From Deltaproteobacteria bacterium (GTDB lineage Bacteria > Myxococcota_A > UBA9042 > DTJE01), in contig JAKPTZ010000001.1 in NCBI GenBank assembly GCA_029555025.1, positions 9,782 to 73,781 on the forward strand: a stretch of 64,000 bases of DNA. Direction: 5' to 3'. Shown here in pieces: positions 4,588 to 58,959 of the stretch. The position numbers were made by a program, and so were the translations under genes. Numbering within the stretch: the first letter of the stretch is position 1; every line of letters begins with the position of its first letter. The notes under the pieces were generated by a model. It was not told the DNA's origin. It searched no databases and saw only the letters and a program-made list of their open reading frames with translations.

Positions 4588-6297
4588 CTAGTCGTTTCGA
4601 AGACCGTCGGCCGGGCTCATCGATGCAACCGCCGAAGTCGGGTAAATCGTCGCGATCAGGGCAGCCCCGAGAGCGGCCAGGGCGACGAGAGCCACGTCAA
4701 GCGCGCTGACGCTGACGGGCAGCCGTTCGATGTAGTATTCCTGGGGCAGGGCGATGCCGGCCGTCTTGATGTACAGGCAGGTCAGCAGCCCGAGCGCCAG
4801 GCCGGAAACGGTGCCGGTAAGGCCTATCACCCAACCGATGGTGAAATAGACCGACCTGATTCCGGATGCGGTCACGCCCATGCTCCGCAGCACGGCGATG
4901 TCCCGCGTTTTTTCCATCGTCACCAGCAGCAGCGACCCGAAGACATTGAATGCCGCAACCAGTATCACCAGTCCAAGCACCAGGAACATCGCTATTCTCT
5001 CGACCATCAGGGCGGAAAACAGGGATCTGTTGGTCTGCGTGACCGTCCTGACCCGGGAGCCTGGGACGCCGTCGGCGACCCCCTGAACTTCGGCGGCGAT
5101 TCCCTCCAGTTTCTGGATGTCGGACACCATGATTGCCATCTGTTCGCGGGATGCGCCGGAAAAAAGCCGGCGGCCGCTGTCCGCGAGCACGAAGGCCGTC
5201 TTCAGGTCGAACTCGTAAAGGCCGCTCTTGATGGTTCCCACGACCCTGAAGACCGAAGTCGATGGCTGGAGTCCAAGGGGACCGACATCCCCGTCCGGGA
5301 TCACCACCGTGACTTCGTCTCCTTCAGTGACGCCAAGTCCCAGCGCAAGCTCGGAACCAAGAATGATGCCGTCCCTTACCCTGACCCCGTCGTCCGGTTC
5401 CGCAATCGGCGGAACGTCGATCTCGTCGGGCGCCGCAATTGGGGGAACGTTGAGTTCGGCGGTCTCAACGCCAACGGTGGCGGCATCTTCGGCCTTCCTG
5501 CCTTCAGACGGTTGCGATGGAGCAATCCCGTCCCTGGCCGGCGGCTGAACCGCCGCTTCACCCGGTTCCGCCGCCTGGCGCGTGGCCGGATCCGGGAACA
5601 CGAAGCCAAGGTCCCTGTCGGAAATGGTTGTTTCCGGTCTTACAAGTCCCTCAAGCGCACCCCTTGAAACGGAATTCCGAAGCCAGCGGGCCTCAAGCGC
5701 ACCGCCCGGGGTGATTCCACGGATGGTTGTTCCCGGGCCCATGTTTGAGCTCGACGCCAGCAGCGCATCGCCCTGAACGAAAGATTCGGCCATCACCACG
5801 TCGGGAATGCGCCCGATCCGGTCGGCCATCGGCTGGCAGGTCTGTCCTCCGTCGAAGTCGTCGGCCGAAGCCGCGCACCGCTCGACGGTTATGTGTGGAT
5901 TGTTGCGGATGATCTTGTCCTTGAGGTCAAGCTCGAACCCGCTCATCACGGAAAGAACAACGATAAGCGCCCATACGCCGATTGCGGTTCCGGTCATCGC
6001 GATGAAGTTCTGCGTGGCGACCGGCACCAGGCGGCGGAACCAGGATCGCTTTTCCTCGCGGAAGCCAAGCAGGAAGCGCAGTGCCAGCAGCAGCTTCCAG
6101 GAGCCGGCGCCGCCCCTTTCGGAAAAGCGCTTCAGTGCCCGGACAATCATGCCGACAAGCACGGCGGTCATGATCAGGGAAGCAAGGATAACGCCGGTAA
6201 GTTGCACCGCGGGCAGCATGTATCCAATCGCCGCCCCGGCCCTTTCCAGCAGTCCTTCCAGCATTTTGCCCCGGAGGCCGTTTCCGGCCGCTTCCAT
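4588..6297 (-). CDS. LolC/LolE-family (FtsX-like) lipoprotein-release permease, atypically long
   Basis: 569 aa. The typical LolC/E beginning LLLALRFL...IAMTGTAIGVWALIVVLSVMSGFE is present, followed by a large periplasmic domain and a C-terminal FtsX-type 3-TM bundle (FLVLGLVILVAAFNVFGSLLL...). The start is uncertain: Met codons at 6297, 6264, 6171 and 6150 all lack a strong RBS. Confidence 0.82.
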   Translation of the reverse strand: MEAAGNGLRGKMLEGLLERAGAAIGYMLPAVQLTGVILASLIMTAVLVGMIVRALKRFSERGGAGSWKLLLALRFLLGFREEKRSWFRRLVPVATQNFIAMTGTAIGVWALIVVLSVMSGFELDLKDKIIRNNPHITVERCAASADDFDGGQTCQPMADRIGRIPDVVMAESFVQGDALLASSSNMGPGTTIRGITPGGALEARWLRNSVSRGALEGLVRPETTISDRDLGFVFPDPATRQAAEPGEAAVQPPARDGIAPSQPSEGRKAEDAATVGVETAELNVPPIAAPDEIDVPPIAEPDDGVRVRDGIILGSELALGLGVTEGDEVTVVIPDGDVGPLGLQPSTSVFRVVGTIKSGLYEFDLKTAFVLADSGRRLFSGASREQMAIMVSDIQKLEGIAAEVQGVADGVPGSRVRTVTQTNRSLFSALMVERIAMFLVLGLVILVAAFNVFGSLLLVTMEKTRDIAVLRSMGVTASGIRSVYFTIGWVIGLTGTVSGLALGLLTCLYIKTAGIALPQEYYIERLPVSVSALDVALVALAALGAALIATIYPTSAVASMSPADGLRND

Positions 6298-6327
6298 CCC
6301 GTCAAAGGGACGGGGTCAACGACAAGG

Positions 6328-7881
6328 TCATTTTTCCGGGCGGAGCATCGGGAACAGTATTACGTCCCTGATGCTGTCCGAACCTGTCATCAGCATCGCA
6401 AGCCTGTCGATGCCGATGCCTTCGCCCGCGGTCGGGGGAAGCGCGTACTGAAGTGCGCGGATGTAGTCCTCGTCGTATTCCATCGTTTCCTGGTCGCCGG
6501 CCGCCTTTGCGACCATCTGCGCCCGGAAGCGTTCTTCCTGATCCTGCGGATCGTTCAGTTCCGAGAACGCATTCCCGAATTCGTTCGTCGCGACATACAG
6601 TTCGAACCGATCGACCAGGGTCGGATCGGAATCCTTGCGGCGCGAAAGCGGGGAAATGGCCGCCGGGAAGTCGGTCACGAACGTCGGCTGGATCAGGTGC
6701 TGCTCCACGGTCTCCTCGAACACCATCATGCAGATTTCCAGGGCGCAGTTGCGCTGGGCGTTTGGATCCCGGGAATCCTGGTACTTCTTCATCACGATGT
6801 CGGCGGCCTTGCGGTCGATTCGGTGTTTCAGGCCCCATTCATAGGCCGCCCGTCCGTCATGGAACGCCTGTTCCGGAGCGTCGGCATATTCACGCAGACC
6901 CTCGCACACGGGAAGCCGGCGGAACGGCTTTCCCAGGTCGATATCGTGGCCGCGGAACTGCACGACGGTCTTTCCCAGGATGTCCCTGGCCATGGACTGG
7001 AAGAGATCCTCGGTCATGTCCATCAGGTCAAGATACGTCGCATAAGCCTGATACAGTTCGATCATGGTGAATTCCGGATTGTGACGGTTGGAAAATCCCT
7101 CGTTCCGGAAGTTGCGGTTCATTTCATAGACGCGGTCGAAACCACCGACGACAAGACGCTTCAGATAAAGCTCGGGTGCGATTCGCAGGTAAAGATCGAC
7201 ATCCAGCGTGTTGTGGTGTGTGACGAACGGCCTGGCGTTTGCCCCGCCCAGGATCGGATGCATCATCGGGGTTTCGACCTCGATGAAGTCCCTCTGATCC
7301 AGATAGTCGCGGATGTACTTGATTATCCTGGTTCTGGTCCGGAAAACCTCGCGGGAGTCGTCGTTGACGATCATATCGACGTATCTCATCCGCTGACGCA
7401 TCTCGGCGTCCTGCAGGCCGTGGAACTTCTCGGGCAGAGGTCTCTGGGACTTGGAAAGAATCCTGAAAGACTTCGCCTTGACGCTCAGTTCACCGGTTCT
7501 TGTAACGAAAAGCTCGCCCTCGACGCCGACGATATCGCCGATATCGAGCAACTTGAACCTTGTGAACGACATCTCGTCAACTTCGTCCTTCTTGACGTAA
7601 ACCTGCATCGTGTCCGAGCGATCCCTGACCCGGATGAAGGCCGCCTTGCCGAAAGAGTTGACCGCCATGGCGCGGCCGGCCACGCTGACCTGGATTGCCG
7701 CGGCCTCAAGTGCTTCGTTGGAAAGCTGTTCGCCGTCGGGGCCGATGCCACGGGCGCGTACGGTCGCAATGGATTCCGTAACGCGAAAATCGTTGGGATA
7801 CGCCGCACCATCGACTTCGCGCAGTTTCTGAAGCTTTTCGAGCCTCTGATCAATCAATGTATTTTCACTGGTTTCAATCAC
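6328..7881 (-). CDS. lysS: lysine--tRNA ligase (class II)
   Basis: 517 aa with an N-terminal OB-fold region and class II motifs: FRNEG, NPEFTMIELY and GEGIGIDRLAMLMTG. Confidence 0.95.
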   Translation of the reverse strand: MIETSENTLIDQRLEKLQKLREVDGAAYPNDFRVTESIATVRARGIGPDGEQLSNEALEAAAIQVSVAGRAMAVNSFGKAAFIRVRDRSDTMQVYVKKDEVDEMSFTRFKLLDIGDIVGVEGELFVTRTGELSVKAKSFRILSKSQRPLPEKFHGLQDAEMRQRMRYVDMIVNDDSREVFRTRTRIIKYIRDYLDQRDFIEVETPMMHPILGGANARPFVTHHNTLDVDLYLRIAPELYLKRLVVGGFDRVYEMNRNFRNEGFSNRHNPEFTMIELYQAYATYLDLMDMTEDLFQSMARDILGKTVVQFRGHDIDLGKPFRRLPVCEGLREYADAPEQAFHDGRAAYEWGLKHRIDRKAADIVMKKYQDSRDPNAQRNCALEICMMVFEETVEQHLIQPTFVTDFPAAISPLSRRKDSDPTLVDRFELYVATNEFGNAFSELNDPQDQEERFRAQMVAKAAGDQETMEYDEDYIRALQYALPPTAGEGIGIDRLAMLMTGSDSIRDVILFPMLRPEK

Positions 7882-8047
7882 TTTGAATTCTCCCGCGGGA
7901 AAGCGCGCCGTACCCTACCGGTAGAAGGTATAAATGTCAATCCCGGTGCGTGTGCGCCGCGAGCGTCCGGACACGCGTCCGCGTGCGTAAGGCGTTGCCT
8001 GGTTCGCTCCATTCCCTTGAATTCGCAGAACCGGGGTTTCAAATGAA

Positions 8048-16738: not shown

Positions 16739-16883
16739 TCCCCTGCATTCATCTATTGTTTAAGCTCTGATTTTTCCCTAAAATTCGCACGATGTGATCC
16801 GTCCTGCGGGCGCGGCCATTCTGGTCCTTCCCGATTTCGGCGCGGTCGCGATTGCCCGATCTTGAAAATTCAGGAGGTTTCTG

Positions 16884-19800
16884 GTGAGAACTGGAACCGC
16901 ATTTGTCATTGCAGTCATTTTCGCGTTGCTTTCCGGTTGCGGCGGCTCGAACCCCGCGTCCGACAACGGACTTCCGGAAGATACCGCATCGGATTACATC
17001 ATCGGGTCGGATCTGAACGGACAGGATGTCCGCCTGGACACGATTTCGCCCGACGGCACCGGTCTGGACGGGGAAGAATCTGATTCTTCACGGGATCAGG
17101 GTCTGCCGCCGGAACCTTGTCGGCCCGGCGAATCGTGCGACGACCATGATCCGTGCACGATCGACGACCTGTGCGACGACGACGAGGAGTGCGCCGGGAC
17201 GCCGGTCGAGGACTGCGACGACGGAATCGAATGCACTTTCGACGAATGCACGACCGAAACCGACTGTTCGCATGAATTGAAGCCGGGATGGTGTTTCGTG
17301 GCGGGCAAGTGCATCGAGGACGGTCAGTCCGATCCTGCCGTGATTTGCAGATCCTGCCAGACGGCACTGAAGACCGATGAACTCCTTCCCGACGACAACA
17401 TGACCTGTGACGACGGCGATGCCTGCACCGTCAACGACAGGTGTCATGAAGGTTTCTGCATTGCCGACGCCCGCGACTGCGGCGATCGCAACTCATGCAC
17501 GGCCGACATGTGCGTTAACGGTTCCTGCGTCAACGAGGCCGTCGAAGGCATGTGCAACGACGAAGACCTTTGTACTGAAAACGACCTCTGTGTCGATGGT
17601 CAGTGCGTCGGTTCACCCATCGGTTGCTGGGATCAGAATCCCTGCACCCAGGATGCCTGTCATCCCGATTTCGGATGTGTCCACGAGTTCCTGGACATAC
17701 CGTGCGACGACGGGAACATCTGCAGCGTCGGGGATCGCTGCTGGCTTGGCAATTGCCTTTCCGGCGACGGAATGAAGGATTGCGACGACGGCAATCAGTG
17801 CACCGACGACGGCTGCGTGCCGGTTCGTGAAGGCGGTTGCGTCCACATCCCGAATACCGCGCCGTGCGACGATGGCGACCCGTGCACGCTGGAAGACAAG
17901 TGCAAGGCCAGCTCGTGCGATCCAGGCAAGGGCGTCCTTGACTGCGACGATGGGAATCCCTGCACGACGGACAGGTGCGAGAAGGGTACCGGATGTGTTC
18001 ATGACAACAACACCGTGCCTTGCGATGACGAGGATCCGTGCACCCTTGACGACGTCTGCGGCGGTGGCGTCTGCAATCCCGGCGTGACGCAGCTTGCCTG
18101 CGATGACGGCAACGAGTGCACCAGCGACTTCTGTGAGGCCGGGATTGGCTGCGTGTATGAAAACAACCTGAATATCTGCGACGACGACAACGTGTGCACG
18201 AACGTATCGACGTGCATGGACGGCGTGTGCATCGGCGAGTCCGCGGTCGATTGCGGCGATGATGATTCCTGCACCCTTGATTACTGCCTGCCGACCGGTG
18301 ACGCGCCCGGCTGCTATCACAAGCCGCTTCCCGAATGCAGGCCGCAGATTGTCATCGACTATCCACCCCGCGCATCCACTCTGAGCAAGAAGACCGGCGA
18401 CCAGATTGTGGTTCGCGGGCATATCGAGTATCCGCCGAACGCAATCCAGGAAGACGGTTATCCGAGCCCGGAAATGGCCATGAGCAAGGTCGTCGTCAAC
18501 GGCCTTGACGTCTGGGTCGATCCCAGGACGAAGCCGTGGTCATTCCAGAGCACGATGACGCTGCAGCAGGGGATGAATCCCATTGTTGCGTACGGCCAGG
18601 CCAATGCGGTGCCGGCATACAAGGATTACGTCGTCCAGTCTCTTTACTACTCGGACTCGTGGTTCCCGGTCAGTCACGCCAATCCGGCCGCCGGGATGGT
18701 CAGCGACGGCGTGAAGATATTCCTGGGCAAGACGGTCTGGGACGACAACAACACGGCGACCGCCGACGACATCGCGACCCTGTTGACCAACATCCTGAAA
18801 ACACTCAGCCTTTCCACGCTTATCAAGAATCCGGTCACCAAGGGCGAGTTCGGCTGGTGCGATTACAAGGTCAACCTGAAGAACATGAAATACGGGACGC
18901 CGTCGATTGACCTGATTCCCGACTGGGGAAAGATAAAGGTCAAGGTCGTGATCCCCAGGTTCAGCGTGGATATCGACGTCCCGATAAGCGGTTTCGCGTG
19001 TCCCGATTTCAGCGGGGATGCCTCGGCGACTTCGATAACGATTAATGCCGACTTGAACCTTGCAATCGATCCGCAGGGAAAGCCGCTTGCCACCATTTCC
19101 AATCCGGATGTCGTGGTTTCCGGGCTTGATGTCGATGTCGATGGCATCTGGGGCTTCCTTTTCAACTGGATCATCGACTTCTTCGAAGACAACTTTGCCG
19201 ACATGATCGAGGACGAGTTCGAGACCCAGCTAGCCGGCCAGCTTTCCGAACTGGTCAGGGGCGCCGTGGCCGATCTGGCCCTTGACCCGGAATTCCCGGT
19301 TCCCGAACTTCTGCCGGGAATGACGCCGGTCACGCTCCAGATGAAGAGCAAGTTTTCCACGATATCCATCACGCCCGAAGGCAGCGATATCGGTCTTGCC
19401 GCGGTCGTCCTGCCGGATGCCGCCCAGACGCCGCCGGCGGTGCTGCTCGGTTCTATCGGTCGCGGCGCCTGCCTGGGAACCGATCCCGGGATTCCCGCGT
19501 TCCCCCACACATACGAAATGGGGCTGATGGCCAAGGATGATTTCCTTAACGAGGCCCTTTACGCAATCTGGGCGTCGAATGGACTGAAGATTCCGGTCGG
19601 GCCCGAAATGCTCGGCGATTTTGACCTTTCCGAGTTCGGGATTTCCAATCTCAGCCTGAATGTCGATTTCCAGTTGCCGCCGTTGATATCGGACTGCAAT
19701 CTGGAACACAAGATGTTCTTCGAGGCCGGGGATATCAGGGTGAACGCGGGCATGAAGCTGCTCGGCTCCCAGGTTGACATGGTGATGTACGCCAGCCTGA

Positions 19801-20132
19801 TCGCCGAGGCCCGCATTGTCCTGGTGCCGGGCGCGACCGGAACAGAGGTCGGCATTCAGATCGAGACGCCGCTTTTCATCGATATTGAAGTCGCCCAGAT
19901 TGCCGGGGGGCTTGTCGGTGCCGAAGACACGATCAGCTCGCTGATCCGGACGGTCGCCCTTCCGATGGTTCTTGATCTTCTGTCCGGGGACACGCTGGCT
20001 TCGTTCCAGCTTCCAAGCATCGACTTGAGCTCGCTGGCCGAGGGATTCCCGGCCGGGTCGGTGATCGAAATCGACATGAAGGAAGTCAATCGTTCCAGGG
20101 GCGCGACCATAGTTCTTGGCAATGTGAAGTAA
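16884..20132 (+). CDS. Cys-rich repeat lipoprotein with C-terminal BPI/LBP/CETP-like (TULIP) two-lobed region, paralog 1
   Basis: GTG start with AGGAGG 6 nt upstream and a lipobox (ALLSGC). An acidic linker is followed by about 14 units of the type CDDGNxCTxDxC....GC.H / CDDGDPCTxxDxC..G.C at roughly 17115-18350. A short beta-sandwich-like segment follows. The last 477 aa (18699-20129) show BPI-like landmarks (see findings). Confidence 0.85.
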   Translation: MRTGTAFVIAVIFALLSGCGGSNPASDNGLPEDTASDYIIGSDLNGQDVRLDTISPDGTGLDGEESDSSRDQGLPPEPCRPGESCDDHDPCTIDDLCDDDEECAGTPVEDCDDGIECTFDECTTETDCSHELKPGWCFVAGKCIEDGQSDPAVICRSCQTALKTDELLPDDNMTCDDGDACTVNDRCHEGFCIADARDCGDRNSCTADMCVNGSCVNEAVEGMCNDEDLCTENDLCVDGQCVGSPIGCWDQNPCTQDACHPDFGCVHEFLDIPCDDGNICSVGDRCWLGNCLSGDGMKDCDDGNQCTDDGCVPVREGGCVHIPNTAPCDDGDPCTLEDKCKASSCDPGKGVLDCDDGNPCTTDRCEKGTGCVHDNNTVPCDDEDPCTLDDVCGGGVCNPGVTQLACDDGNECTSDFCEAGIGCVYENNLNICDDDNVCTNVSTCMDGVCIGESAVDCGDDDSCTLDYCLPTGDAPGCYHKPLPECRPQIVIDYPPRASTLSKKTGDQIVVRGHIEYPPNAIQEDGYPSPEMAMSKVVVNGLDVWVDPRTKPWSFQSTMTLQQGMNPIVAYGQANAVPAYKDYVVQSLYYSDSWFPVSHANPAAGMVSDGVKIFLGKTVWDDNNTATADDIATLLTNILKTLSLSTLIKNPVTKGEFGWCDYKVNLKNMKYGTPSIDLIPDWGKIKVKVVIPRFSVDIDVPISGFACPDFSGDASATSITINADLNLAIDPQGKPLATISNPDVVVSGLDVDVDGIWGFLFNWIIDFFEDNFADMIEDEFETQLAGQLSELVRGAVADLALDPEFPVPELLPGMTPVTLQMKSKFSTISITPEGSDIGLAAVVLPDAAQTPPAVLLGSIGRGACLGTDPGIPAFPHTYEMGLMAKDDFLNEALYAIWASNGLKIPVGPEMLGDFDLSEFGISNLSLNVDFQLPPLISDCNLEHKMFFEAGDIRVNAGMKLLGSQVDMVMYASLIAEARIVLVPGATGTEVGIQIETPLFIDIEVAQIAGGLVGAEDTISSLIRTVALPMVLDLLSGDTLASFQLPSIDLSSLAEGFPAGSVIEIDMKEVNRSRGATIVLGNVK

Positions 20133-20174
20133 CGGCTTCGACGTCCGAAGTCCTGCCGAATGGAGAAACGACCG

Positions 20175-23100
20175 ATGAGAAGAGTGCCGTTTGGTTCAAT
20201 GCTGGCCGCGATGATCCTTGCGATTCCGGCAATCACGGGTTGTGGCGGAACCGTCGATCCCGGACAGGATCTGGTTCAGCCGGAAGACGTGTCCGGGAAC
20301 GACGTCATTTCGCCCGAGGATGTTGAAGACATTTTCGATGCAGGGCGTGACGCGGCCGTGCCGGATGTCGGAACGGATCAGGGCCAGGAAACAGGTGGGC
20401 CCGATATCGCGCTGCCCGATTGTCCTTCCGGCCAGGCGTGCGATGACGGCGATTCGTGCACCATCAACGATCAGTGCCAGTCCGACGGCGAGACGTGCGT
20501 CGGAATCGTCGTGGAATCTTGCAGCGACAACCTGGCCTGCACTTATGATTCGTGTGTTTCCGAAACCGAGTGCACCAACGAGCTGAAGCCGGGATGGTGC
20601 CTGGTTGAAGGCGAATGCATCGAGGATGGCGAGTTCTCGGCGGCACAACCCTGCATGTCCTGCATCACCGCCCTGGGAACCGATCGTCTTTTCCCGGACG
20701 ACGCCGGCGTCTGCGACGACGGGAACGCCTGCACGACCGGCGACGCATGTCATGCGGGCGCCTGTGTCGGGGTCGCCATGGACTGCGACGACGGCAATCC
20801 GTGCACGACGGATGTGTGTGACAACGGAACCTGTCTTAACAACGCGACGGACGGTGCCGCGTGCGACGACGGCAATCGCTGCACTTTCGACGACATCTGC
20901 ACGATGAACGTCTGCGGCGGAACTGCGGTCGAGTGCGATGACGGTAATCTTTGCACCGACGATTCATGCGACCCGGAGTTCGGATGCATGAATATCAACA
21001 ACGAAGCCGGTTGCGACGACGGCAACCTGTGCACCGTCGGCGATACCTGTTTCCTTGGCGAGTGCGCGTCGGGAACGGAACCGCTTTTCTGCGACGATTC
21101 AAACATCTGTACCGATGACGGTTGCGTGCCGTCGAAGGGTTGCGTGGCGATACCGAATACGAGCCCGTGCGACGACGGTGATCCCTGTACCGTCAACGAC
21201 TTCTGCCAGGCTTCGGAATGCCTGGCCGGCAAGTTGCCCCTGGATTGCGACGACAACAACCTTTGCACCGATGAGGTCTGCACGAAAGGCATCGGCTGCG
21301 AGTACACGAACAACGAACTCGAGTGTGACGACAACAACGAGTGCACGGTTGGCGACACGTGCGGCGGCGGAACCTGCCGGCCCGGCGTCGGCGAACTCTT
21401 CTGCGATGACGGCAACGTCTGCACCGACGACGCCTGCGTGATTGGCGAAGGCTGCGTCAACGTCCCGAACAATGACGAGTGCGAAGACAACAACGTCTGC
21501 ACCGGCATGGGAACATGCGTTGACGGCTCGTGTCAGCGGGGATCTTACAACTACGACTGCGACGATGGTTTGCAGTGCACCGCCGATTCCTGCCACCCGG
21601 TTGACGGATGCCAGCACAGCCTGGTCAACAGCGCCGACTGCCGTCCACAGGCCGTCATCGACTTCCCGGAAAGGGCCGCCACGCTCAACGGCGCCAGGGA
21701 CATCACGGTAACCGGCCATGTCGATCTGGGACTTGACGGAATCCCGGTTCCGTTCGTGACCATTAACGGTAACCAGTACGCCCTTGGACTCGATGGAAGG
21801 TTTTCAGCTCCCAGAACTTCCGACCAGGGATTCAACGGCCTGGTAGTCGAGGTCGAAGACATCAACGGCATGAAGGATCGCGTGGTTCAGTCGTACTACT
21901 ACTCGACCGAATGGTTCCCGTTCAGTGAAACCGACCCGTCGGTTTCGAATGTAAACGACGGTCTTGTGCTTTTCATTGGCCCCGAGGTCTGGGACGACAA
22001 CGACACCTCCACTTACGACGACGTCGCAACGATTATCTCGACTTTCGTCGATGACATCGATCTGATGTCGATGATTTCGAACCCGGTCGAGGAGGGTGAC
22101 GACGGCTTCGTGTGCGGCGATCATCGAATCAACATCAACAGCATCACCTTCGGAACGATTGCGGTTGATCTGACGCCGGTAAACGGCGGGCTTTACATGA
22201 AGGTGACAATCCCGAACATCAAGATCGGCATCAGTGGAAAGTACTGCCACGTCAACTTCTCGGGCACCGCGAACGCAAGCAGCATCGTGGTCAACTCGAC
22301 CCTGAACATCTCGATCGATCCGGCCACCGGCAAGCCGGTAATCGCCATGACTGGAACCAATTCCAGCGTCAACGGGTTGTCAATCAATATCAATAACTTC
22401 CCGGGCTTCCTTGAAGACATCCTGATGTTCTTCCTTGAAGACACGCTGACCGGCATGATCGAGGACACCATCGAGGATCAGATTGCTGGGCTGATTCCGG
22501 ATCTTCAGGAAGCACTCGAGGGGCTGGCGATCGACCAGACCTTCGAGATTCCAGCGCTTTTCGACGGCGGTTCGCCGATGACGGTTACCCTTGATTCCGG
22601 TCTTTCGTCCATCGTCTTCACGCCGGCCGGCGGCACGCTGGGAATGAAGGCCGCCTTCAGTGCCCCGAAGGGAACCACGCACGAGAAGCTGGGCTCGTTG
22701 GGGCGTGCCAATTGCCTGCTTGGCGGTCTTGAGGCGAAGCCGGTGTTCCCGGTCGGTCCCAGTTCGCCCCAGCTTGAGCTTGGATTGAAGGACGATCTGC
22801 TGAACGAACTGGTATTCGCCCTTTACTGGGGTGGCGCACTCAATCTGCCGATTCCGGCGGAAATGCTTGGCGATTCCCTGGGTGACTACGGCATCACCGA
22901 CATGGTCGCGAACATCGATTTCCTGTTGCCGCCCGTCCTTTCGGCCTGCAATTCGCAGGGCATCCTGAAGGTTGCCGTCGGCGACGTGATGCTGGACGCG
23001 ACCTTGAAACTGTTCGGAGCTCCGCTGACCATGAAGATTTATGTCAGCCTGATGGCCGGGGCCAACATCATAGCCCGTCAGACCGAGACCGGTTCGACGA

Positions 23101-23390
23101 TGCTCGGCGTTGCGGTCAACTATCCGGACTTCATCGACATGGAGATCGCGAGTCTGGTCGGGAACCTTTCCGGGGCCGAGGACACGATCAAGGGGCTGGT
23201 CATGGACACGCTGCTGCCAAGCCTGCTCGGCACGCTTGACGGCGTCACGCCGCTGGTCGAATTCGAGATCCCGGCAATCGACATGTCTTCGTTCATCGAC
23301 GGCGTGCCGGCCGGTTCCGAGTTGAGCATCATGGTAAGGGAAGTTCTGCGCGCCGGGGCGTACACCGTCGCGTCGGGCACGGTTCAGTAG
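20175..23390 (+). CDS. Cys-rich repeat lipoprotein with C-terminal BPI/LBP/CETP-like region, paralog 2
   Basis: ORF 20160..23390. The ATG at 20175 has GGAGA 8 nt upstream (MRRVPFGSMLAAMILAIPAITGC lipobox). The architecture matches paralog 1 and stays collinear through the C-terminal region (21951-23387). Confidence 0.85.
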   Translation: MRRVPFGSMLAAMILAIPAITGCGGTVDPGQDLVQPEDVSGNDVISPEDVEDIFDAGRDAAVPDVGTDQGQETGGPDIALPDCPSGQACDDGDSCTINDQCQSDGETCVGIVVESCSDNLACTYDSCVSETECTNELKPGWCLVEGECIEDGEFSAAQPCMSCITALGTDRLFPDDAGVCDDGNACTTGDACHAGACVGVAMDCDDGNPCTTDVCDNGTCLNNATDGAACDDGNRCTFDDICTMNVCGGTAVECDDGNLCTDDSCDPEFGCMNINNEAGCDDGNLCTVGDTCFLGECASGTEPLFCDDSNICTDDGCVPSKGCVAIPNTSPCDDGDPCTVNDFCQASECLAGKLPLDCDDNNLCTDEVCTKGIGCEYTNNELECDDNNECTVGDTCGGGTCRPGVGELFCDDGNVCTDDACVIGEGCVNVPNNDECEDNNVCTGMGTCVDGSCQRGSYNYDCDDGLQCTADSCHPVDGCQHSLVNSADCRPQAVIDFPERAATLNGARDITVTGHVDLGLDGIPVPFVTINGNQYALGLDGRFSAPRTSDQGFNGLVVEVEDINGMKDRVVQSYYYSTEWFPFSETDPSVSNVNDGLVLFIGPEVWDDNDTSTYDDVATIISTFVDDIDLMSMISNPVEEGDDGFVCGDHRININSITFGTIAVDLTPVNGGLYMKVTIPNIKIGISGKYCHVNFSGTANASSIVVNSTLNISIDPATGKPVIAMTGTNSSVNGLSININNFPGFLEDILMFFLEDTLTGMIEDTIEDQIAGLIPDLQEALEGLAIDQTFEIPALFDGGSPMTVTLDSGLSSIVFTPAGGTLGMKAAFSAPKGTTHEKLGSLGRANCLLGGLEAKPVFPVGPSSPQLELGLKDDLLNELVFALYWGGALNLPIPAEMLGDSLGDYGITDMVANIDFLLPPVLSACNSQGILKVAVGDVMLDATLKLFGAPLTMKIYVSLMAGANIIARQTETGSTMLGVAVNYPDFIDMEIASLVGNLSGAEDTIKGLVMDTLLPSLLGTLDGVTPLVEFEIPAIDMSSFIDGVPAGSELSIMVREVLRAGAYTVASGTVQ

Positions 23391-23427
23391 TTTTCGGGGC
23401 CTTTCCGGGCCCTTGCGGAGGATATAG

Positions 23428-25581
23428 ATGCGCAAGCTGCTTTTTGCTTCAATGATCGGATTCGGGATGCTCGTGGCCTGTGGACCCGGTGAATCGGGAA
23501 CCGACGAGGGCACCGGCGTTGACGTCGGCTACGAGGATGTCAATCAGCCTGTCGATAACGGCCAGGATGTCCAGCCGGACACGGCTCGTCCCGACCTGAA
23601 CCAGCCGGATGATGGTCCGGTCGATGTCGGCCAGGATCACGGGATTGATACGAATCCCGGCGATTCTGTGGTTCTTCCGGACAACGGCGACTGCCTGGCC
23701 GGCGATCCCTGTGACGACGGCAATCCGTGCACCTGGGGCGAGACATGCGGCGAGTCAGGCGAATGTGGCGGCGGCACGCACTACACCTGCGACGATGGCC
23801 GGGCCTGCACCGATGACACATGTGACGGACTTGGAAACTGCCTGTTCGTCATGAAGGCCGGAACCTGCCTGATCAACGGAATCTGCCGCGACAAAGACGC
23901 CGCGGATCCCGAGGATCCCTGTTTCGTCTGCAAGCCGGGCACAAGTGTCAGCGAATGGTCAAAGGCACCCGACGAAACCGCGTGCGACCCGACGGTAACT
24001 CTGGGACGTTGCGAGGATTCGCCCGGCGGCACCTGCGTGGACGGCGTATGCGTTGCTTCGACGATTGTGCCGAAGGGGTGCGATGACAGTGATCCGTGCA
24101 CCGAGGATTCCTGCAATCCGGCGGTCGGCTGCATCAATACGCCTGTCAGCAGCGGGGAATGCGTTCTTGAAGACAAGTGCAAGCCAGGCTACTGCTTCCA
24201 GGGCGTGTGCATCGTTCCCGAAGACAGTTCATGCGATGACGGCAACTCATGCACCCTGGATTCCTGTGACGACGTCAAGGGATGCCAGCACAGCCCGATC
24301 GAGGAAGCCGCCTGCGACGACGGCGACGAGTGCACGTTCCAGGATTCCTGTTTCGAGGGCGTGTGCAACGGCCGGCCCCAGAACTGCGACGATGGCAACG
24401 TGTGTACCGAGGACGGTTGCGACAGCATCACCGGATGCTGGCACGACCTGGCAACCAATCCCTGCTGCATCGGCGGCGTTTCCGTTTGCGACGACAATAA
24501 TCCGTGCACCAATGACGATTGCGACCCCGATACGTTCGAGTGCTTCCACAACGACAACACGGCCGCGTGCAGCGACGGGAATCCGTGCACCGTCGGCGAT
24601 TCCTGCGACGAAGGTGATTGCTTCGGCTCGGCGAAGAACTGTTCGGACGGAAATCAGTGCACTTCCGATTACTGTGACGGCGGTCTCTGCCTGCATGACA
24701 TCCTTTCCGGGACTGCCTGTGATGATGGTCGCGATTGCTCGGTCAACGATCACTGCGAGGCCGGCCTCTGCGTCGCCGACGAGTCCGGCTGTGTCTGTCA
24801 GCCGACCTTCTATCCGGCGGTGTCCAAGTTCGTAACGATGGCGATTTCGACCAACGGAAAGACCGGTTCCGGCCTCGATCTCGATATGAAGCCGACGACC
24901 TGCGCGCCCGCGGAGGATTGCTGCTGTGGCATCGATAACGCTCTTGGTCCCGTGGCCGGCATGAAGGCGGCTCAGGACGGCATCAAGGACGCCATGGCCG
25001 AGGGCAGCATCACGCTTCTGTTTGAACACCGGGAGATCAAGACCGACGGGACGCCTTATACCTTGGCGTTCTATTCCGGTGAACTGGCCCCGACAAACGA
25101 ATCCTGCAACTTCCTGACCCAGGATTGCGACTATGTTGTCGAGCCGATGATGATCACCGACGAGTGTCTGCCGCTGGTCACTTTGAACAATGCGAAGATC
25201 GTCGGCAACAAGTTGACCGCGGGCGGGCTTGATTACGTGTTCCCGTTCGACCTTCCGCTGCTTGAAGGAATCAATCTTCACGTGGATCTGTATTTCACCA
25301 GGGTGGAAGCCAACGTAACCGTGTCCGGCGGGCGTGTCACGTCCATGCAGGGCATCCTGGGCGGCGCGATTCCGAAGCAGCAGATTTCGGACGCGGTGCA
25401 GGCCGTCCCGGACGAGACATGGGCCGACCTGCCGGTTGACAAGGCAACCGTTATGATGCTGCTTGACCTGGTCGTTATTCCCGATATCGATGGCGACAAG
25501 GACGGCATCATGGAATCGGCGTCAATCGGGATTCAGTTCACTGCTATTCCAGGCGAGATCGTCGGCCGCAAGGTTGACTGA
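23428..25581 (+). CDS. Cys-rich repeat lipoprotein, paralog 3, with a different uncharacterised C-terminal domain
   Basis: ATG with GGAGGA 5 nt upstream and a lipobox (GMLVAC). It has the same acidic linker and CDDGNxCTxDxC repeat array (about 23690-24790). The C-terminal region of about 260 aa (CVCQPTFYP...EDCCCGIDNALGP...) is unrelated to the BPI-like region of paralogs 1 and 2. Confidence 0.85.
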   Translation: MRKLLFASMIGFGMLVACGPGESGTDEGTGVDVGYEDVNQPVDNGQDVQPDTARPDLNQPDDGPVDVGQDHGIDTNPGDSVVLPDNGDCLAGDPCDDGNPCTWGETCGESGECGGGTHYTCDDGRACTDDTCDGLGNCLFVMKAGTCLINGICRDKDAADPEDPCFVCKPGTSVSEWSKAPDETACDPTVTLGRCEDSPGGTCVDGVCVASTIVPKGCDDSDPCTEDSCNPAVGCINTPVSSGECVLEDKCKPGYCFQGVCIVPEDSSCDDGNSCTLDSCDDVKGCQHSPIEEAACDDGDECTFQDSCFEGVCNGRPQNCDDGNVCTEDGCDSITGCWHDLATNPCCIGGVSVCDDNNPCTNDDCDPDTFECFHNDNTAACSDGNPCTVGDSCDEGDCFGSAKNCSDGNQCTSDYCDGGLCLHDILSGTACDDGRDCSVNDHCEAGLCVADESGCVCQPTFYPAVSKFVTMAISTNGKTGSGLDLDMKPTTCAPAEDCCCGIDNALGPVAGMKAAQDGIKDAMAEGSITLLFEHREIKTDGTPYTLAFYSGELAPTNESCNFLTQDCDYVVEPMMITDECLPLVTLNNAKIVGNKLTAGGLDYVFPFDLPLLEGINLHVDLYFTRVEANVTVSGGRVTSMQGILGGAIPKQQISDAVQAVPDETWADLPVDKATVMMLLDLVVIPDIDGDKDGIMESASIGIQFTAIPGEIVGRKVD

Positions 25582-25596
25582 CCGATCGTTTCCACC

Positions 25597-26214
25597 CTAG
25601 AAGTCGCAGCCGCGTTCTTCAAACCTGGCGGATGCCTGAAGCACCTTTTCGACGTAATCGACGTTCTGGGGAAGCTCCAGATTCTGTCTGGCCCTGCCCG
25701 GCATTCCGTGGCCGGCGTTATACCCGGAAAGCCCCAGGTAGATGGAATCCTTGTAGTATTTCAGGAAGGCCTTGATTACACGGGCGCCGCAACGCAGGTT
25801 TTCGTATGGATCGTTAAGCGGCCCGCAACGTTTTGCCCTGGCCGTTGCCGGCATGCACTGGGTCAGGCCGACGGCGCCGACAGGGGATTTCACGTCGTTC
25901 CTGAAGTTGGATTCCACTCGAACGATGCCGACAAGCAGCGACGTCTCGATGTCGAATTCGCTGGCGACCCTGGTTATCAGGGGAAGGAGCTCCCGGCAGC
26001 GTTCGGTCGCCGCGCTTGTGGCCGACCCTGTCCGCGAGGCGCCCGAATTCTTGACGGTCGGTCGTTTGGAATTCAGCGATGCCGTCGGGACGTGCCTTTT
26101 CCCATGCCCGGATGCGGCGGCAACCCGGGTGCCGGAAGTTCCGGCGTGGCAGCCCGCACCAAGGCCAAGAAGGGCGATAAGAATGATCGACGGCAGTGTG
26201 ATTGCCCGTTTCAT
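25597..26214 (-). CDS. lytic transglycosylase (SLT domain) lipoprotein
   Basis: This is the C-terminal 205 aa of ORF 25597..27216(-). It has a lipobox (LLGLGAGC) and the SLT motifs VRVESNF, GLTQCMP and YNAG. The start is the ATG at 26214 (MKRAITL). The longer upstream ORF overlaps rlmI and is rejected. Confidence 0.85.
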   Translation of the reverse strand: MKRAITLPSIILIALLGLGAGCHAGTSGTRVAAASGHGKRHVPTASLNSKRPTVKNSGASRTGSATSAATERCRELLPLITRVASEFDIETSLLVGIVRVESNFRNDVKSPVGAVGLTQCMPATARAKRCGPLNDPYENLRCGARVIKAFLKYYKDSIYLGLSGYNAGHGMPGRARQNLELPQNVDYVEKVLQASARFEERGCDF

Positions 26215-33593: not shown

Positions 33594-35198
33594 TCAGAAG
33601 AAGAACATAACGGAAGCTTCAAGCTGATAAACGGGATCGACCGCGCCCGGGAAGGGGCCCTTGTTGACGAAGGCCGCGGCGGCCTTGCCCGGAAGGAAAG
33701 TGGTTCCGGCGATATCGACCGACAGGTACTTCTTGTACAGGAATTCCAGGTGCAGGTCGGCTTCCAGGCCCACGAAATTGGCGCCCAGCGCGTTGCGGTC
33801 GTTCAGCGCCCAGCCGGCGCCAATCGTGACCATCGGCTTGAAGAAGTTCTTGTGAAGAAGCCCGAATGAGACATCGGCGACCGTAAGGCCGGCGCGGTTC
33901 AGCCAGAACTTTCCCTTGTCCGCGTTCCTTCGGTCTGAAACCAGTTCATCGATGTTTCCGCCGCGATCGCGGAGTTCGTCTTCCGTCAGGATCAGTGTCC
34001 TGCTGCGGCTCTTTCCCGAGTAGAGCCATGCGCCGTTGCGCGTGTTGCCGTCCCAGTCGTCGTCGGCGCTGATGGCAAGAACGTTCAGGTCGAGAAGGAA
34101 GTTGAGATCCTTCACGCCCTGAAGCCTGCGATCCATGTTCATGTACGCCTGAAGTGCCCAGGCAAGGGTCGTTTCATTGTCGCCGCCGGCCCTTCCTTCA
34201 GTCGTGCCGTACTGAAGGCCAAGATCCAGACCGAACTTGATCCACCGCCAGTCGCCGGACAGGTTGGCCGTGATGGCCATCAGATCCATCGTGCGGCCGA
34301 CCACCTGGCTGTCGTGAATGCCCCAGATCGCGGCGTCAAGCTTCAGCCTGTTGAACGGCATCGTCAGGCGGGCCCCGTAAAGGATTGTGTCGGAATTGAA
34401 GTTGTTGCTGTCGAAGGCGATTCCTTCGTACGTCTGATCCGGCATCTGGGCTACCGTGAAAGTGACCTGGCCCCATTTCTGCCTGGTCCAGAAGTTTGCG
34501 GCCCCGAGCCAGTGGCCGACGAACAGGCCGGTCGGATCGAAGAGCTTTTCATAGCCGACGCGGAAACCGATCTTCTGCTTTTCGAAGTTACCTTCCACAT
34601 ACGCCTGCCGGAAGCCGACGCGGAACCAGTCGGGCAGGCTGGTGCTGTAGTTGTCCGGATCGTGCGTGGACCAGATGTTAAGGCCCATTTCCAGTTCGAA
34701 CACCATCTTCAGTTCCTTGACCGGGGTAACCACAAGCATCGGGGCAAGGAATGTTCCGACGACGCCCACGTCCTGGCCGTTCGCGTTGTAAAGAGGCGGG
34801 GTCTGGTCGAAGTCCGAGTCGCTGCGCCAGAGGAATATGGTTTGCAGGCGTCCCATGAACCTGGCGTATTTGTTTCCGATGCCGAAACCTTTCTGTTCGG
34901 GGGGCAGCAGTTCGTCCGGGGTTGGTGGCTCGACTTCCGTCCCGGAAGCCTCGTCCTGGGATTCCGCGTCCGCCTGATCGATGGGGTCACCCTCAAGCGG
35001 CTCCGGTTCAATCGCGCCCGCCGGCCCTGCCGCGGGCTCGACCGAAGGAGCGTCGCCTTCCGCGGTGTTGGCCGGCGCCGGTGCTTCGGCAGACTCGACC
35101 GTCGCGACCGGTTCCGCCGTGGTTTTGTCCTGTTCCTGTGCAAGGGCCGGGACGTTGAACATGAAAACCAGGATTGATGCAATTATTGTGCGTTTCAT
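33594..35198 (-). CDS. putative outer-membrane beta-barrel (porin-like) protein
   Basis: It has a signal peptide (FMFNVPALAQE) and an acidic/Pro-rich linker of about 90 aa. Alternating-hydrophobicity strands follow, and the C-terminus is ...ASVMFFF (terminal Phe, an OMP signature). I recognised no specific family. Confidence 0.6.
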   Translation of the reverse strand: MKRTIIASILVFMFNVPALAQEQDKTTAEPVATVESAEAPAPANTAEGDAPSVEPAAGPAGAIEPEPLEGDPIDQADAESQDEASGTEVEPPTPDELLPPEQKGFGIGNKYARFMGRLQTIFLWRSDSDFDQTPPLYNANGQDVGVVGTFLAPMLVVTPVKELKMVFELEMGLNIWSTHDPDNYSTSLPDWFRVGFRQAYVEGNFEKQKIGFRVGYEKLFDPTGLFVGHWLGAANFWTRQKWGQVTFTVAQMPDQTYEGIAFDSNNFNSDTILYGARLTMPFNRLKLDAAIWGIHDSQVVGRTMDLMAITANLSGDWRWIKFGLDLGLQYGTTEGRAGGDNETTLAWALQAYMNMDRRLQGVKDLNFLLDLNVLAISADDDWDGNTRNGAWLYSGKSRSRTLILTEDELRDRGGNIDELVSDRRNADKGKFWLNRAGLTVADVSFGLLHKNFFKPMVTIGAGWALNDRNALGANFVGLEADLHLEFLYKKYLSVDIAGTTFLPGKAAAAFVNKGPFPGAVDPVYQLEASVMFFF

Positions 35199-41300: not shown

Positions 41301-41962
41301 TGTGGATCCTGGGCGGTGACGGATGGGCCTATGACATCGGTTACGGCGGACTGGATCACGTCCTGGCCCAGGGCCGGAACGTCAATATCCTGGTTCTGGA
41401 TACCGAGGTTTACAGCAACACCGGCGGACAGGCGTCCAAGTCAACCCCGCTGGGGGCTGCCGCCAAATTCGCGATGGCTGGAAAGGGTACCGCCAAGAAG
41501 GACCTGGCAATGATCGCCATGACCTATGGCAACGTCTATGTGGCGAAGGTCGCAATCGGCGCGAAGGATGCCCAGACCGTCAAGGCGTTCAAGGAAGCAG
41601 AATCCTGGCCGGGAACGTCCATCATCATCGCTTACTCGCACTGCATCGCCCACGGTTACGAGCTGATCGACGGGCCGGACCATCAGGCCACCGCAGTCAG
41701 CACCGGCATCTGGCCGCTGTTCCGCTGGGATCCCAGGCGTCTTGCGGAAGGTCTGAGTCCGTTGCAGCTTGATTCTGCCGCGCCGGTCGGCGATGTCGGG
41801 GACTTCGTGAAGAACGAGACCCGCTTCCGGATGGTGCAGGCCGCGAACCCGGATCGTTTCGAGAAGCTGATGGATATGGCCCGCAAGGAGGTCGCGACGC
41901 GATTTGCCATGTACGACCAGATTTCGAAGATGGACTTCTCGACCCAGAAGGATTCCGAGTAA
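38384..41962 (+). CDS. nifJ: pyruvate:ferredoxin (flavodoxin) oxidoreductase
   Basis: 1192-aa single-chain PFOR. It has two ferredoxin-type clusters (CIQCGKCSLICPHAAI and CTGCGLCAKICP), the TPP-binding GGDGWAYDIG motif and the C-terminal domain. Confidence 0.95.
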   Translation: MSRREMVTIDGNEATASVAHRISEVIAIYPITPSSNMGEWADDWSAQGRRNIWGTVPQVTEMQSEGGAAGAVHGALQAGALTTTFTASQGLLLMIPNMYKIAGELTSFVMHVSARTLATHALSIFGDHSDVMSCRGTGFAMLSSASVQEAHDFALISAAATLKSRVPFLHFFDGFRTSHEVAKIEELTNEDLGHMITDEMVAAHRARCMTPDSPVLRGTAQNPDTFFQAREACNRFYDACPEIVQGEMDRFGELTGRRYSLVEYFGAPDAERVIVLMGSGCDVVHEYVEWAMARGEKIGVLKVRLYRPFPVQAFIDAIPKTVKSIAVLDRTKEPGADAEPLFMDVVTAIHGARAAGKFPLAVEPKLVAGRYGLSSKEFTPAMIKAVYDELGRVSPRARFTVGIHDDVTNLSLDFDKDFDIEPEDVRRSVFFGLGSDGTVGANKNSIKIIAGDTDNFGQGYFVYDSKKAGAITVSHLRFGPRQIRSSYLIRKANFVACHQYSFLEKYDMLRYAAKGAVFLLNAPYSAEEVWQHLPCEVQKDIIAKQLKFYVIDAYKVARENDMGVRINTIMQTCFFAISGVLPKDDAIKAIKKAIEKTYGKKGPAIVEKNFAAVDNSVANLHEVKVPEIATSCILRPPAVHPKAPDFVKNVTAPMMSSNGEDLPVSAFPVDGTWPTGTTKWEKRNIALEIPVWDPSLCIQCGKCSLICPHAAIRAKVYGAEHLEKAPATFKCADYKAPDFKGNKWTIQIAPEDCTGCGLCAKICPGKNKAVEGEKALMMRDQLPLRVTEAQNFEFFLGLPNIDRSKLKGGTVKGSQLMEPLFEFSGACAGCGETPYVKLLTQLFGDRALIANATGCSSIYGGNLPTTPYTVNCDGRGPTWNNSLFEDNAEFGFGFRLAIDKHREQALELLSLLSAKIGDELVAALVEGADKTDDADIAAQRERVEGLRAKLADDKSPEARRLLVLADYLVHKSVWILGGDGWAYDIGYGGLDHVLAQGRNVNILVLDTEVYSNTGGQASKSTPLGAAAKFAMAGKGTAKKDLAMIAMTYGNVYVAKVAIGAKDAQTVKAFKEAESWPGTSIIIAYSHCIAHGYELIDGPDHQATAVSTGIWPLFRWDPRRLAEGLSPLQLDSAAPVGDVGDFVKNETRFRMVQAANPDRFEKLMDMARKEVATRFAMYDQISKMDFSTQKDSE

Positions 41963-42044: not shown

Positions 42045-42101
42045 ACACGGCGCCGGACTATGTCCAGCATCCAAGCTTACCTGGTGAAACGAGGACTTCA
42101 G

Positions 42102-45256: not shown

Positions 45257-45276
45257 CGTCCGCATTGGAGGTTTGA

Positions 45277-46494: not shown

Positions 46495-46508
46495 GCGCCC
46501 CGCGCCCG

Positions 46509-58710: not shown

Positions 58711-58870
58711 CCGCAGGATCCTCCGTGTTGCCCGGCCCCGTCTGGCGGCAAATGTCGATGAAGTGCCGGAACACTGGAATAAAGACATGCAAAGACTCGC
58801 AAAAACGGCCCTGGATGTCAATTGGATGCTGCTGTCGTCAACCCCGTCCGAAACATTGACAAGACCCCGG

Positions 58871-58898
58871 TTGACTTGTTGCCGCGCGTGATTATTTT
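58871..58898 (+). promoter_or_regulatory. candidate sigma-70 promoter for dnaK
   Basis: TTGACT (58871-58876), a 16-nt spacer, then TATTTT (58893-58898). I saw no CIRCE element (TTAGCACTC-N9-GAGTGCTAA). Confidence 0.4.
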
Positions 58899-58959
58899 CC
58901 TGTCCGAACCGGGCCACGGGCCCCTGTGACAATGGATTCTGATTCGTCTGGAGGCGGAC

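Follow-up and report, generated by a model that had tools for sequence, protein, structure and literature searches.

The window analysed here is a stretch of 64,000 nucleotides from a Deltaproteobacteria bacterium (contig JAKPTZ010000001.1 of assembly GCA_029555025.1, forward strand 9,782–73,781), which contains a probable operon of three plus-strand open reading frames (ORFs) encoding the proteins P1 (1082 amino acids, aa), P2 (1071 aa), and P3 (717 aa; Table 1). P1 and P2 carry predicted immunoglobulin-like (Ig-like) and BPI-like double-TULIP heads on long Cys-rich stalks, and P3 carries a different head on a homologous stalk. We read the locus as a vertically inherited lipoprotein operon in which fixed stalks would hold lipid-carrying TULIP heads together with a partner head supplied by P3, a reading that we consider probable by a modest measure. 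A GGAG-type ribosome-binding site (RBS) lies ahead of every start, the genes are separated by 42 and 37 bp, and a search for terminator-like sites between them found none; the short gaps and the lack of a terminator thus fit a single operon. The promoter of gene 1 is placed from the intergenic gap alone, because no sigma-70 consensus was found in the 145 bp upstream of this gene. An alternative start for P2 is an in-frame ATG at 20160; the start used here, at 20175, has GGAG 10 nt before it.

Table 1. Coordinates of the probable lipoprotein operon, its parts, and the adjoining features in the window (position 1 is the first nucleotide of the window).
Feature	Position	Strand	Details and basis
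Upstream intergenic region, likely promoter region	16739..16883	+	145 bp; AGGAGG RBS 7 nt 5' of the GTG start
Gene 1 (P1), predicted lipoprotein: Cys-rich stalk, Ig-like domain, BPI-like double-TULIP	16884..20132	+	ORF, Pfam, AlphaFold2 (AF2), Foldseek
P1 predicted signal peptide, lipobox LLSG before Cys19	16884..16940	+	Motif; lipobox context kept in orthologues
P1 acidic low-complexity tether, 59 aa, net −12	16941..17117	+	Composition
P1 predicted disulfide-rich stalk, 14 four-Cys Dicty_CTDC-type units, insert after unit 2	17118..18338	+	Pfam, motif count
P1 predicted Ig-like beta-sandwich	18339..18671	+	AF2 strands 4–110 of the C-terminal model; partial Foldseek matches
P1 predicted double-TULIP (BPI/LBP/CETP-like two-barrel)	18672..20129	+	Foldseek; profile against PDB sequences
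Gene 2 (P2), full-length P1 paralogue (43% identity), same architecture	20175..23390	+	ORF, Pfam, alignment
P2 predicted disulfide-rich stalk, 14 units	20421..21641	+	Motif count
P2 predicted Ig-like domain and double-TULIP	21642..23387	+	Pfam; collinear alignment with P1
Gene 3 (P3), predicted lipoprotein: homologous stalk, different head	23428..25581	+	ORF, Pfam, alignment
P3 predicted disulfide-rich stalk, ~11 units, 56 Cys	23692..24798	+	Motif and Cys count
P3 head, conserved 260-aa domain, alpha/beta as modelled	24799..25578	+	Alignment, AF2, Foldseek, profile searches
SLT-domain lytic transglycosylase, convergent neighbour, predicted lipoprotein (LGAG before Cys)	25597..26214	−	Pfam SLT; lipobox; synteny

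The leaders of P1, P2, and P3 are basic and hydrophobic and end in LLSGC, AITGC, and MLVAC, respectively, and most orthologues have equivalent lipoboxes. Judged by motif only (a basic n-region, a hydrophobic h-region, and the lipobox [LVI][ASTVI][GAS]C in the first ~25 residues), all three are predicted signal peptidase II (SPII)-type lipoproteins. The leader is followed by an acidic tether of 59, 59, and 70 aa, each with 14–18 Asp/Glu and only 1–2 Lys/Arg, and then by a stalk of four-Cys units of ~25 aa and C-x-D-x-N-x-C-T-x-D-x-C type, of which a motif count gives 14 in P1, 14 in P2, and ~11 in P3. An insert stands behind the second unit in all three stalks (ELKPGWCF/LV..C.EDG...C.SC in P1 and P2; KAGTCLINGICRD...PCFVC in P3). 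Pfam assigns the stalks to Dicty_CTDC (PF00526) with 71.9, 80.2, and 88.2 bits, against a gathering score of 27, in 6–7 matched stretches per protein. The repeats were also considered as DUF4215, TIGR02232, or TIGR04201 myxococcal repeats, an assignment rejected for want of a match; an NCBIfam scan of all three proteins at E ≤ 1 gave no match, neither TIGR04201 (the TraA type) nor TIGR02232 being reported, and the Cys-rich array had no match among PDB sequences. The net charges of mature P1, P2, and P3 are −128, −139, and −99.

The original prediction, made from the sequence alone, had called the same three same-strand ORFs, each with its own RBS, a lipobox leader, an acidic linker, and repeats resembling Dicty_CTDC, and had proposed an oxidising, extracytoplasmic destination for the products and noted the absence of enzymes or regulators inside the block; on all of these points the present analysis agrees with it. 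The head module that it described as shared is present too, and is placed here after unit 2. Its count of about 14 units in P1 holds, but the array is not the last element of the proteins, since a non-repeat C-terminal sequence follows (~600 aa in P1 and P2, ~260 aa in P3); in describing giant Cys-rich repeat proteins, it passed over the heads carried on the stalks, which are the informative part. The three genes had also been taken for paralogues of one another, which is correct for P1 and P2 over their full length, whereas P3 is homologous to P1 only as far as the end of the stalk (leader, linker, and stalk, 33% identity) and then continues into an unrelated C-terminal part.

An AF2 model of the C-terminal part of P1 (residues 485–1082), built with 19 homologues, reached a predicted local distance difference test score (pLDDT) of 82.5 and a predicted template-modelling score (pTM) of 0.79. 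When this model was compared with the PDB by Foldseek, the best matches were human BPI (1ewf; E 2.1e-19), LBP (6e-17), and CETP (4e-16), over ~520 aligned columns and with template-modelling (TM) scores to the target of 0.53 for BPI and 0.54 for LBP and CETP. The next matches were clostridial OrfX/P47, followed by the single-barrel TULIPs SPLUNC1, latherin, Takeout, and JHBP, and E. coli YceB was marginal (E 7.6e-3). The first ~110 residues of the head form an Ig-like sandwich with partial Foldseek matches to the Ig-like domain of sulfite dehydrogenase and to glucodextranase; in P2, Pfam Glucodextran_B is weakly matched (E 8e-4). Similarity to the BPI/LBP family is detectable in sequence as well: phmmer against PDB sequences found mouse LBP (E 1.7e-3), an 8-member family profile found LBP (1.1e-6) and human BPI (9e-5), and several orthologues carry a precomputed call of PF01273, the N-terminal LBP_BPI_CETP domain of Pfam. 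As modelled, the heads of P1 and P2 are an Ig-like domain joined to a full two-barrel BPI-type TULIP.

The last ~260 aa of P3 align well across 24 orthologues; among the conserved features are Cys residues that do not vary, the motif GxDNALG, and an acidic loop, DIDGDGDG, resembling a calcium site. In the closest relatives, the P3 head is the best-conserved part of the block (82–84%, vs. 68–78% for the TULIP heads), and only 31 clusters of this rare domain were found among 5.8 billion proteins. Its AF2 model is confident (pLDDT 91.1, pTM 0.87), and Foldseek found nothing close to it in the PDB (best E 0.17, TM ≤ 0.23) or in the viral BFVD (best E 0.25); single-sequence and profile searches of PDB sequences returned nothing. 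No C2, ExsB, or other beta-sandwich domain was among the 50 best Foldseek PDB matches (all E ≥ 0.17). A cryptic single TULIP barrel was considered for the P3 head and rejected, as hhalign of the P3-head alignment (A3) against the TULIP alignment (A2) aligned only residual Cys-repeat sequence. The modelled P3 head is thus without a solved relative in the PDB as compared here, and we do not claim a new fold for it. Two of its distant homologues have a faint precomputed match to PF28386 (BfoA_C), a lead that was dropped when a literature search for BfoA gave optimisation-algorithm papers only. The 826-aa gene upstream of the distant P3-head homologue P0043 was considered as a TULIP gene and proved not to encode a TULIP protein. 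The distant homologue P0035 (456 aa; locus L036, 5541–6911, JGI 3300008952), lies directly upstream of a contractile-injection-system cluster with Pvc16_N, two phage-sheath genes, and two gp19 tube genes, with no TULIP gene nearby.

The two kinds of head are inherited together. The P1 C-terminal region was used to scan 185,579 species, each represented by a single genome, which gave 33 loci (numbered with the prefix L), all of which were mapped by tblastn, and 25 of these extend far enough downstream to show a P3-type gene. In 24 of the 25, the TULIP-type gene is directly followed by such a gene, and this holds down to 30% identity; in the exception, L025, no P3 head was found in ~5 kb of downstream sequence. 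Two TULIP genes precede the P3-type gene in the triplet clade, to which the window belongs, and one in the doublet clades. Distant loci have different flanks, one clade having GreA, TsaE, and RdgC there and another a Kelch-repeat protein, with the TULIP/P3 pair as the sole constant; no third component co-conserved across distant loci was found, the neighbours being clade-specific. The Kelch-repeat gene, which encodes a beta-propeller protein of ~590 aa, lies directly 3' of the P3-type gene in a clade with long stalks (L021, 14076–15851; L027, 14276–16051; also L022 and L026).

The stalks of the paired genes vary together. When Cys residues were counted between the lipid-anchor Cys and the head in 20 pairs of TULIP-type and P3-type proteins, most loci, including the window, gave 61 and 56, respectively, as against 57 and 54 in L016, 55 and 52 in L018, 77 and 72 in L021 and L027, and 78 and 72 in L030, with a partner count of 72 in L022 and L026 too. 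The Pearson correlation over these 20 pairs, which come from related lineages, is 0.99 for Cys number and 0.95 for stalk length. Every change of the stalk goes in the same direction in both genes, and in the long-stalk clade both have 16 additional Cys (four units). Recent gene conversion is an unlikely cause, because the stalks of P1 and P3 are only 33% identical. The 61-Cys stalk is constant down to ~38% identity, which indicates that the array is a length-constrained structure rather than a drifting repeat.

The block also has a stable place in the chromosome. Upstream lie genes for sigma-70, a class II ribonucleotide reductase (RNR), a FadB-like enzyme, and a thiolase, and downstream those for the SLT lytic transglycosylase, an RlmI-like methyltransferase (MTase), FtsY, and an AlaX-like protein; in the four closest relatives (L001–L004, 68–78% identity) the order sigma70-RNR-FadB-thiolase-P1-P2-P3-SLT-MTase-FtsY is identical, through AlaX. 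From this identical order we take the block to be a vertically inherited core feature of its lineage, and distant lineages retain the TULIP/P3 pair amid other housekeeping genes. The original prediction had seen an accessory-looking island here, and the evidence contradicts it: GC content is 0.59–0.61 across the block and the same in the flanks, synteny is conserved, the neighbours are ordinary chromosomal genes, and the compositional shift, patchiness, and mobility genes of an island are missing. It had also left room for a duplication artefact of assembly, which the 43% identity of P1 and P2 excludes as the source of the genes; copies of the repeat are 60–80% identical in DNA over 33–75 nt, and Tandem Repeats Finder reported no tandem repeats in the block. 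All 33 loci lie in metagenome-assembled genomes (MAGs) of uncultured bacteria, labelled Myxococcota, Myxococcales, Anaeromyxobacteraceae, "Deltaproteobacteria", or Proteobacteria/Pseudomonadota, and in one case Oligoflexales. The last of these (L014; DUVQ01000065.1, "Oligoflexales bacterium") has the full triplet with SLT and FtsY downstream as in the Myxococcota MAGs, so that the MAG may be mislabelled taxonomically or very closely related to them. The SLT transglycosylase (205 aa) is itself a predicted lipoprotein, with the leader MKRAITLPSIILIALLGLGAG ahead of its anchor Cys, and its stop lies 15 bp from that of P3; the gene adjoins the P3-type gene throughout the triplet clade and not in the doublet clades, and we do not claim it as a member of the system.

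Arrays of the Dicty_CTDC-like type are very common. Profile A1, which included the array, was run against a representative set of 1.84 billion and had matches at E ≤ 1e-3 in 27,081 representative clusters, giant proteins being frequent among them; its Cys-rich columns dominated the search and ~40 of the best 150 matches reach the TULIP module, so that this number measures the spread of the repeat and not the size of the TULIP family. The family of TULIP heads itself comprises at least ~40 clusters at 50% identity and 17 clusters at 90% identity (the latter from a word-indexed search). Thousands of proteins of 2,000–5,400 aa (e.g., P0049–P0057 and P0097) consist largely of the same array, and in P0097 (2,236 aa) a stalk with the TULIP module is embedded at residues 601–1471 of the larger protein. 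This abundance in giant extracellular proteins, many of 2,000–5,000 aa, could mean that P1, P2, and P3 are structural or adhesive proteins of the surface or matrix, with the Cys arrays as the functional part and C-terminal domains that bind a non-lipid ligand, and their extreme acidity would suit cation-bridged matrices. Such a view comes close to that of the original prediction, with its giant Cys-rich paralogues in an island. In the homologues P0012, P0014, and P0016, however, the same Ig-like and double-TULIP head is borne on Big-type Ig repeats, with the lipobox kept, from which we conclude that the head is the functional core and the stalk an interchangeable spacer. Stalk length, moreover, is fixed rather than variable, the TULIP fold is known for binding lipids or hydrophobic ligands, and the locus is not an island, so that we give a structural or adhesive function very little credence.

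The reading that we prefer, that of stalked lipid-carrying heads with a partner, can be set out protein by protein. In each of the three, a lipid anchor would lead by way of a flexible acidic tether of 60–70 aa into a disulfide-rich stalk of fixed length with the head at its distal end, and the stalks would fix how far the heads stand from the membrane that anchors them. TULIP folds are known to surround lipids and other hydrophobic ligands with a hydrophobic tube and to transfer or bridge them through water; we infer that P1 and P2 use their TULIP heads in this way to take up, carry, or bridge a lipid cargo. The head of P3, held at the same height, may be their obligate partner, acting as adapter, dock, loader, or gate. 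This partner role is proposed because of the strict gene linkage, the matched stalks, and the analogy to Bdellovibrio bacteriovorus TipA, a double-TULIP whose operon partner, TipB, opens it (Caulton et al., bioRxiv 10.1101/2025.09.09.675085). In an extended form of this proposal, P1, P2, and P3 would stand stalk by stalk as a heteromeric lipid conduit of fixed height, in which a P3 head of new fold docks or gates the BPI-like tubes for transfer between membranes or between cells, with prey, kin, or vesicles as the other side; we regard this extension as quite unlikely. Voiced within it is the thought that, as the heads keep detectable BPI/LBP homology, the family could mark a bacterial source of the eukaryotic two-barrel BPI/CETP architecture.

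The charge of the heads bears on what they might do with such a cargo. The net charge of the N-terminal TULIP barrel is −15 in P1, −25 in P2, and 0 to −30 across 19 family members, none of which has a cationic barrel, and both barrels are acidic in the family, quite unlike BPI and LBP, in which the tip that binds lipopolysaccharide (LPS) is cationic. Many Myxococcota are predators, and the TULIP heads might accordingly be conceived as a weapon that binds LPS and makes the outer membrane permeable in Gram-negative prey, like human BPI, as the latter is their best structural match and TipA, which comes from a predator, destabilises bilayers. BPI and LBP, however, bind LPS through a strongly cationic N-terminal barrel, whereas the barrels here are acidic (−15 to −25 in the window), the BPI/LBP disulfide is missing, and the proteins are tethered rather than released; such a weapon is very unlikely. 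The acidic heads and the missing disulfide make a carrier or transfer activity, like that of CETP, PLTP, or TipA, more likely than a cationic attack on LPS.

Where the heads are displayed is a separate matter. Lys at position +2, an inner-membrane retention signal in M. xanthus, is absent in P1, P2, P3, and their orthologues. Myxobacterial teneurin-like surface proteins have SPII signals and N-terminal modules that include Dicty_CTDC, and in Myxococcus TraA, Cys-rich tandem repeats have been proposed to form a rigid stalk that presents a distal head at the surface (Pathak et al., 2012, PMC3325183). Because of these precedents and the lack of a +2 Lys, we tentatively favour heads that face outward from the cell surface and exchange lipids with prey, kin, or vesicles over a periplasm-spanning role, which we hold to be somewhat doubtful. 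The latter would most readily take the form of a ferry for the cell's own envelope, in which the outer membrane holds the lipid anchors in its inner leaflet, the stalk serves as a ruler across the periplasm, and phospholipid or some other lipid of the envelope is shuttled between the two membranes by TULIP heads that extend to the inner one, with P3 as a co-anchored dock. Lipoproteins sorted by the Lol system face the periplasm by default, the 61-Cys stalk is nearly invariant to ~38% identity, as a fixed distance would require, and the genes are core genes with, in the triplet clade, a neighbouring lipoprotein lytic transglycosylase that could open peptidoglycan. The TipA dimer, according to its authors, has the length of periplasm-spanning lipid transporters (10.1101/2025.09.09.675085), and Wong and Levine discuss possible periplasmic lipid traffic for YceB, a TULIP that is an outer-membrane lipoprotein. 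Large disulfide-rich CTDC, EGF, or TNFR-like arrays, however, are typical of surface or matrix proteins, the myxobacterial precedents are surface receptors, the family is limited to one uncultured lineage where a device for envelope homeostasis might be broader, and the adjacency of the SLT gene is lost in the doublet clades; we therefore think such a ferry unlikely.

Several observations weigh against the preferred reading of lipid-carrying TULIP heads held beside a P3 partner. The PF01273 matches of P1 (19.7 bits, E 7e-4) and P2 (25.0 bits, E 1.8e-5) both fall below the gathering score of 28.8 bits, and PF02886, the C-terminal domain, was not reported for either protein in the Pfam scan at E ≤ 1. 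The conserved disulfide of the N-terminal barrel, which in human BPI we take to be Cys135–Cys175, is absent: in the HMMER alignment, the Cys of "TCSSC" and "QVCEKV" in BPI, and their LBP equivalents, face non-Cys positions of the family profile, although other conserved Cys residues are present in the P1/P2-type family. The stalk pairs are not independent samples and probably reflect ~3–4 events among related lineages. Because the P3 head is unlike TipB or a C2 domain, the case for an adapter is one of linkage and stalk covariation only, and distant homologues of the P3 head were found without an adjacent TULIP gene, which suggests that the domain has some activity of its own. As to location, the +2 sorting rule derives from M. 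xanthus, a distant relative, and a near-invariant stalk length fits a fixed periplasmic gap equally as well as surface display.

Other features of the window include BamA at 1470–3875 (−), PFOR at 38384–41962, and a type IV pilus-type cluster at 42060–48290 (+), with a PilB-like ATPase bearing MshEN, a PilT-like ATPase, a PilC-like platform protein, and a histidine kinase; this context is consistent with the chromosome of an anaerobic or microaerophilic member of the Myxococcota. The ORFs at 5893–8046 (+), of 717 aa, and at 33594–35198 (−), of 534 aa, had no Pfam match at the thresholds used. The ORF at 57040–59229 (−) has an N-terminal match to Pfam NAD-GH and one to Big_5 and overlaps a plus-strand ORF at 58960–60849; NAD-GH matches in GC-rich DNA are often wrong-strand artefacts, and the gene call is doubtful.

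TULIPs of the BPI/CETP type have long been regarded as eukaryotic; bacterial ones have been recognised recently and, to our knowledge, only TipA and TipB have been studied. The locus would represent a different deployment of the fold, namely in two paralogous copies that are lipid-anchored and set on a long, length-conserved disulfide stalk. Bacterial BPI-like folds, a double-TULIP with a partner (TipA/TipB), and Dicty_CTDC-like arrays are already known. A literature search for TULIP proteins in Myxococcota gave nothing relevant, and we found no description of the combination of a lipobox, an acidic tether, a length-conserved CTDC stalk, and an Ig-like and double-TULIP head, present in two copies and co-inherited with an equally stalked partner whose head is without a solved relative. 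The head of P3, modelled with confidence and unlike any solved structure compared, is a candidate new partner or regulator of TULIP proteins, and the role proposed for the stalk may extend to bacterial Dicty_CTDC arrays, tens of thousands of clusters of which are otherwise without an assigned role. Should the heads indeed move lipid at a fixed distance from the membrane, the system would offer a tractable model for bacterial lipid bridging across aqueous gaps and possibly also for lipid exchange between predator and prey or between kin. The residual similarity in sequence to BPI and LBP bears on the origin of the eukaryotic family.

Among known systems, the nearest in fold are other bacterial proteins of BPI type. 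Clustering of the AlphaFold Database (AFDB) groups bacterial proteins, including some from "Deltaproteobacteria bacterium" and Planctomycetes, with human BPI (Barrio-Hernandez et al., 2023, PMC10584675), and it is very probable that P1 and P2 have heads of this bacterial BPI-like class; the portion of that paper drawn on here reports similarity of fold only, with no mention in it of a stalk architecture, tandem paralogy, a partner gene, or covariation. The eukaryotic BPI, LBP, CETP, and PLTP (PF01273/PF02886) share with P1 and P2 the two-barrel boomerang fold predicted over ~520 aligned columns, a sequence homology that, within the N-terminal barrel, is detectable for the final strands and helix B, and an extracytoplasmic location, which for P1 and P2 is predicted. 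They differ in that P1 and P2 score below the Pfam gathering threshold, leave PF02886 unmatched, and do not conserve the disulfide of the family, in that the barrels of P1 and P2 are acidic rather than cationic, and in the predicted tethering of P1 and P2 to the membrane by a lipid anchor and stalk, with an Ig-like domain in front of the barrels. OrfX1, OrfX2, OrfX3, P47, and YceB are likewise bacterial TULIP folds, and YceB is an outer-membrane lipoprotein too, but although Foldseek matches OrfX/P47 at E 1e-9 to 1e-5, the structural agreement with this group is much weaker (TM 0.2–0.3) than with BPI or CETP. OrfX and P47, moreover, are encoded in neurotoxin clusters, and YceB has a single barrel and a 10-aa spacer.

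TraA resembles the proteins of the window as a myxobacterial envelope protein with a stalk of Cys-rich repeats and a distal head, and it belongs to a system that mediates transfer of outer-membrane lipids and lipoproteins from cell to cell (PMC3325183). Its parts, however, are a type I signal, an N-terminal PA14 head, TIGR04201 repeats, and a C-terminal MYXO-CTERM anchor, whereas here a predicted N-terminal lipobox anchor is followed by repeats of Dicty_CTDC type and C-terminal TULIP or P3-type heads. The closest parallel in organisation is TipA/TipB (Bd2538/Bd2539), which we compared by its published description. In both systems, the gene for a BPI-like double-TULIP is followed directly, within one operon, by a gene for a dedicated partner, BPI, CETP, and LBP are the best structural neighbours, and the proteins are exported, or here predicted to be so, in a delta-type or predatory lineage; the TipA paper further mentions beta-sandwich domains fused to double-TULIPs, comparable to the Ig-like domain joined to the barrels in P1 and P2. 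TipA, however, is described as a secreted protein, minus its signal peptide, without a stalk and is encoded by one TULIP gene, whereas the two paralogous genes here encode predicted lipoproteins on disulfide-rich stalks of ~400 aa, and in place of TipB, a C2-like beta-sandwich of small size whose insertion loops are hydrophobic, there is P3 with a predicted alpha/beta head of 260 aa on a stalk of its own.

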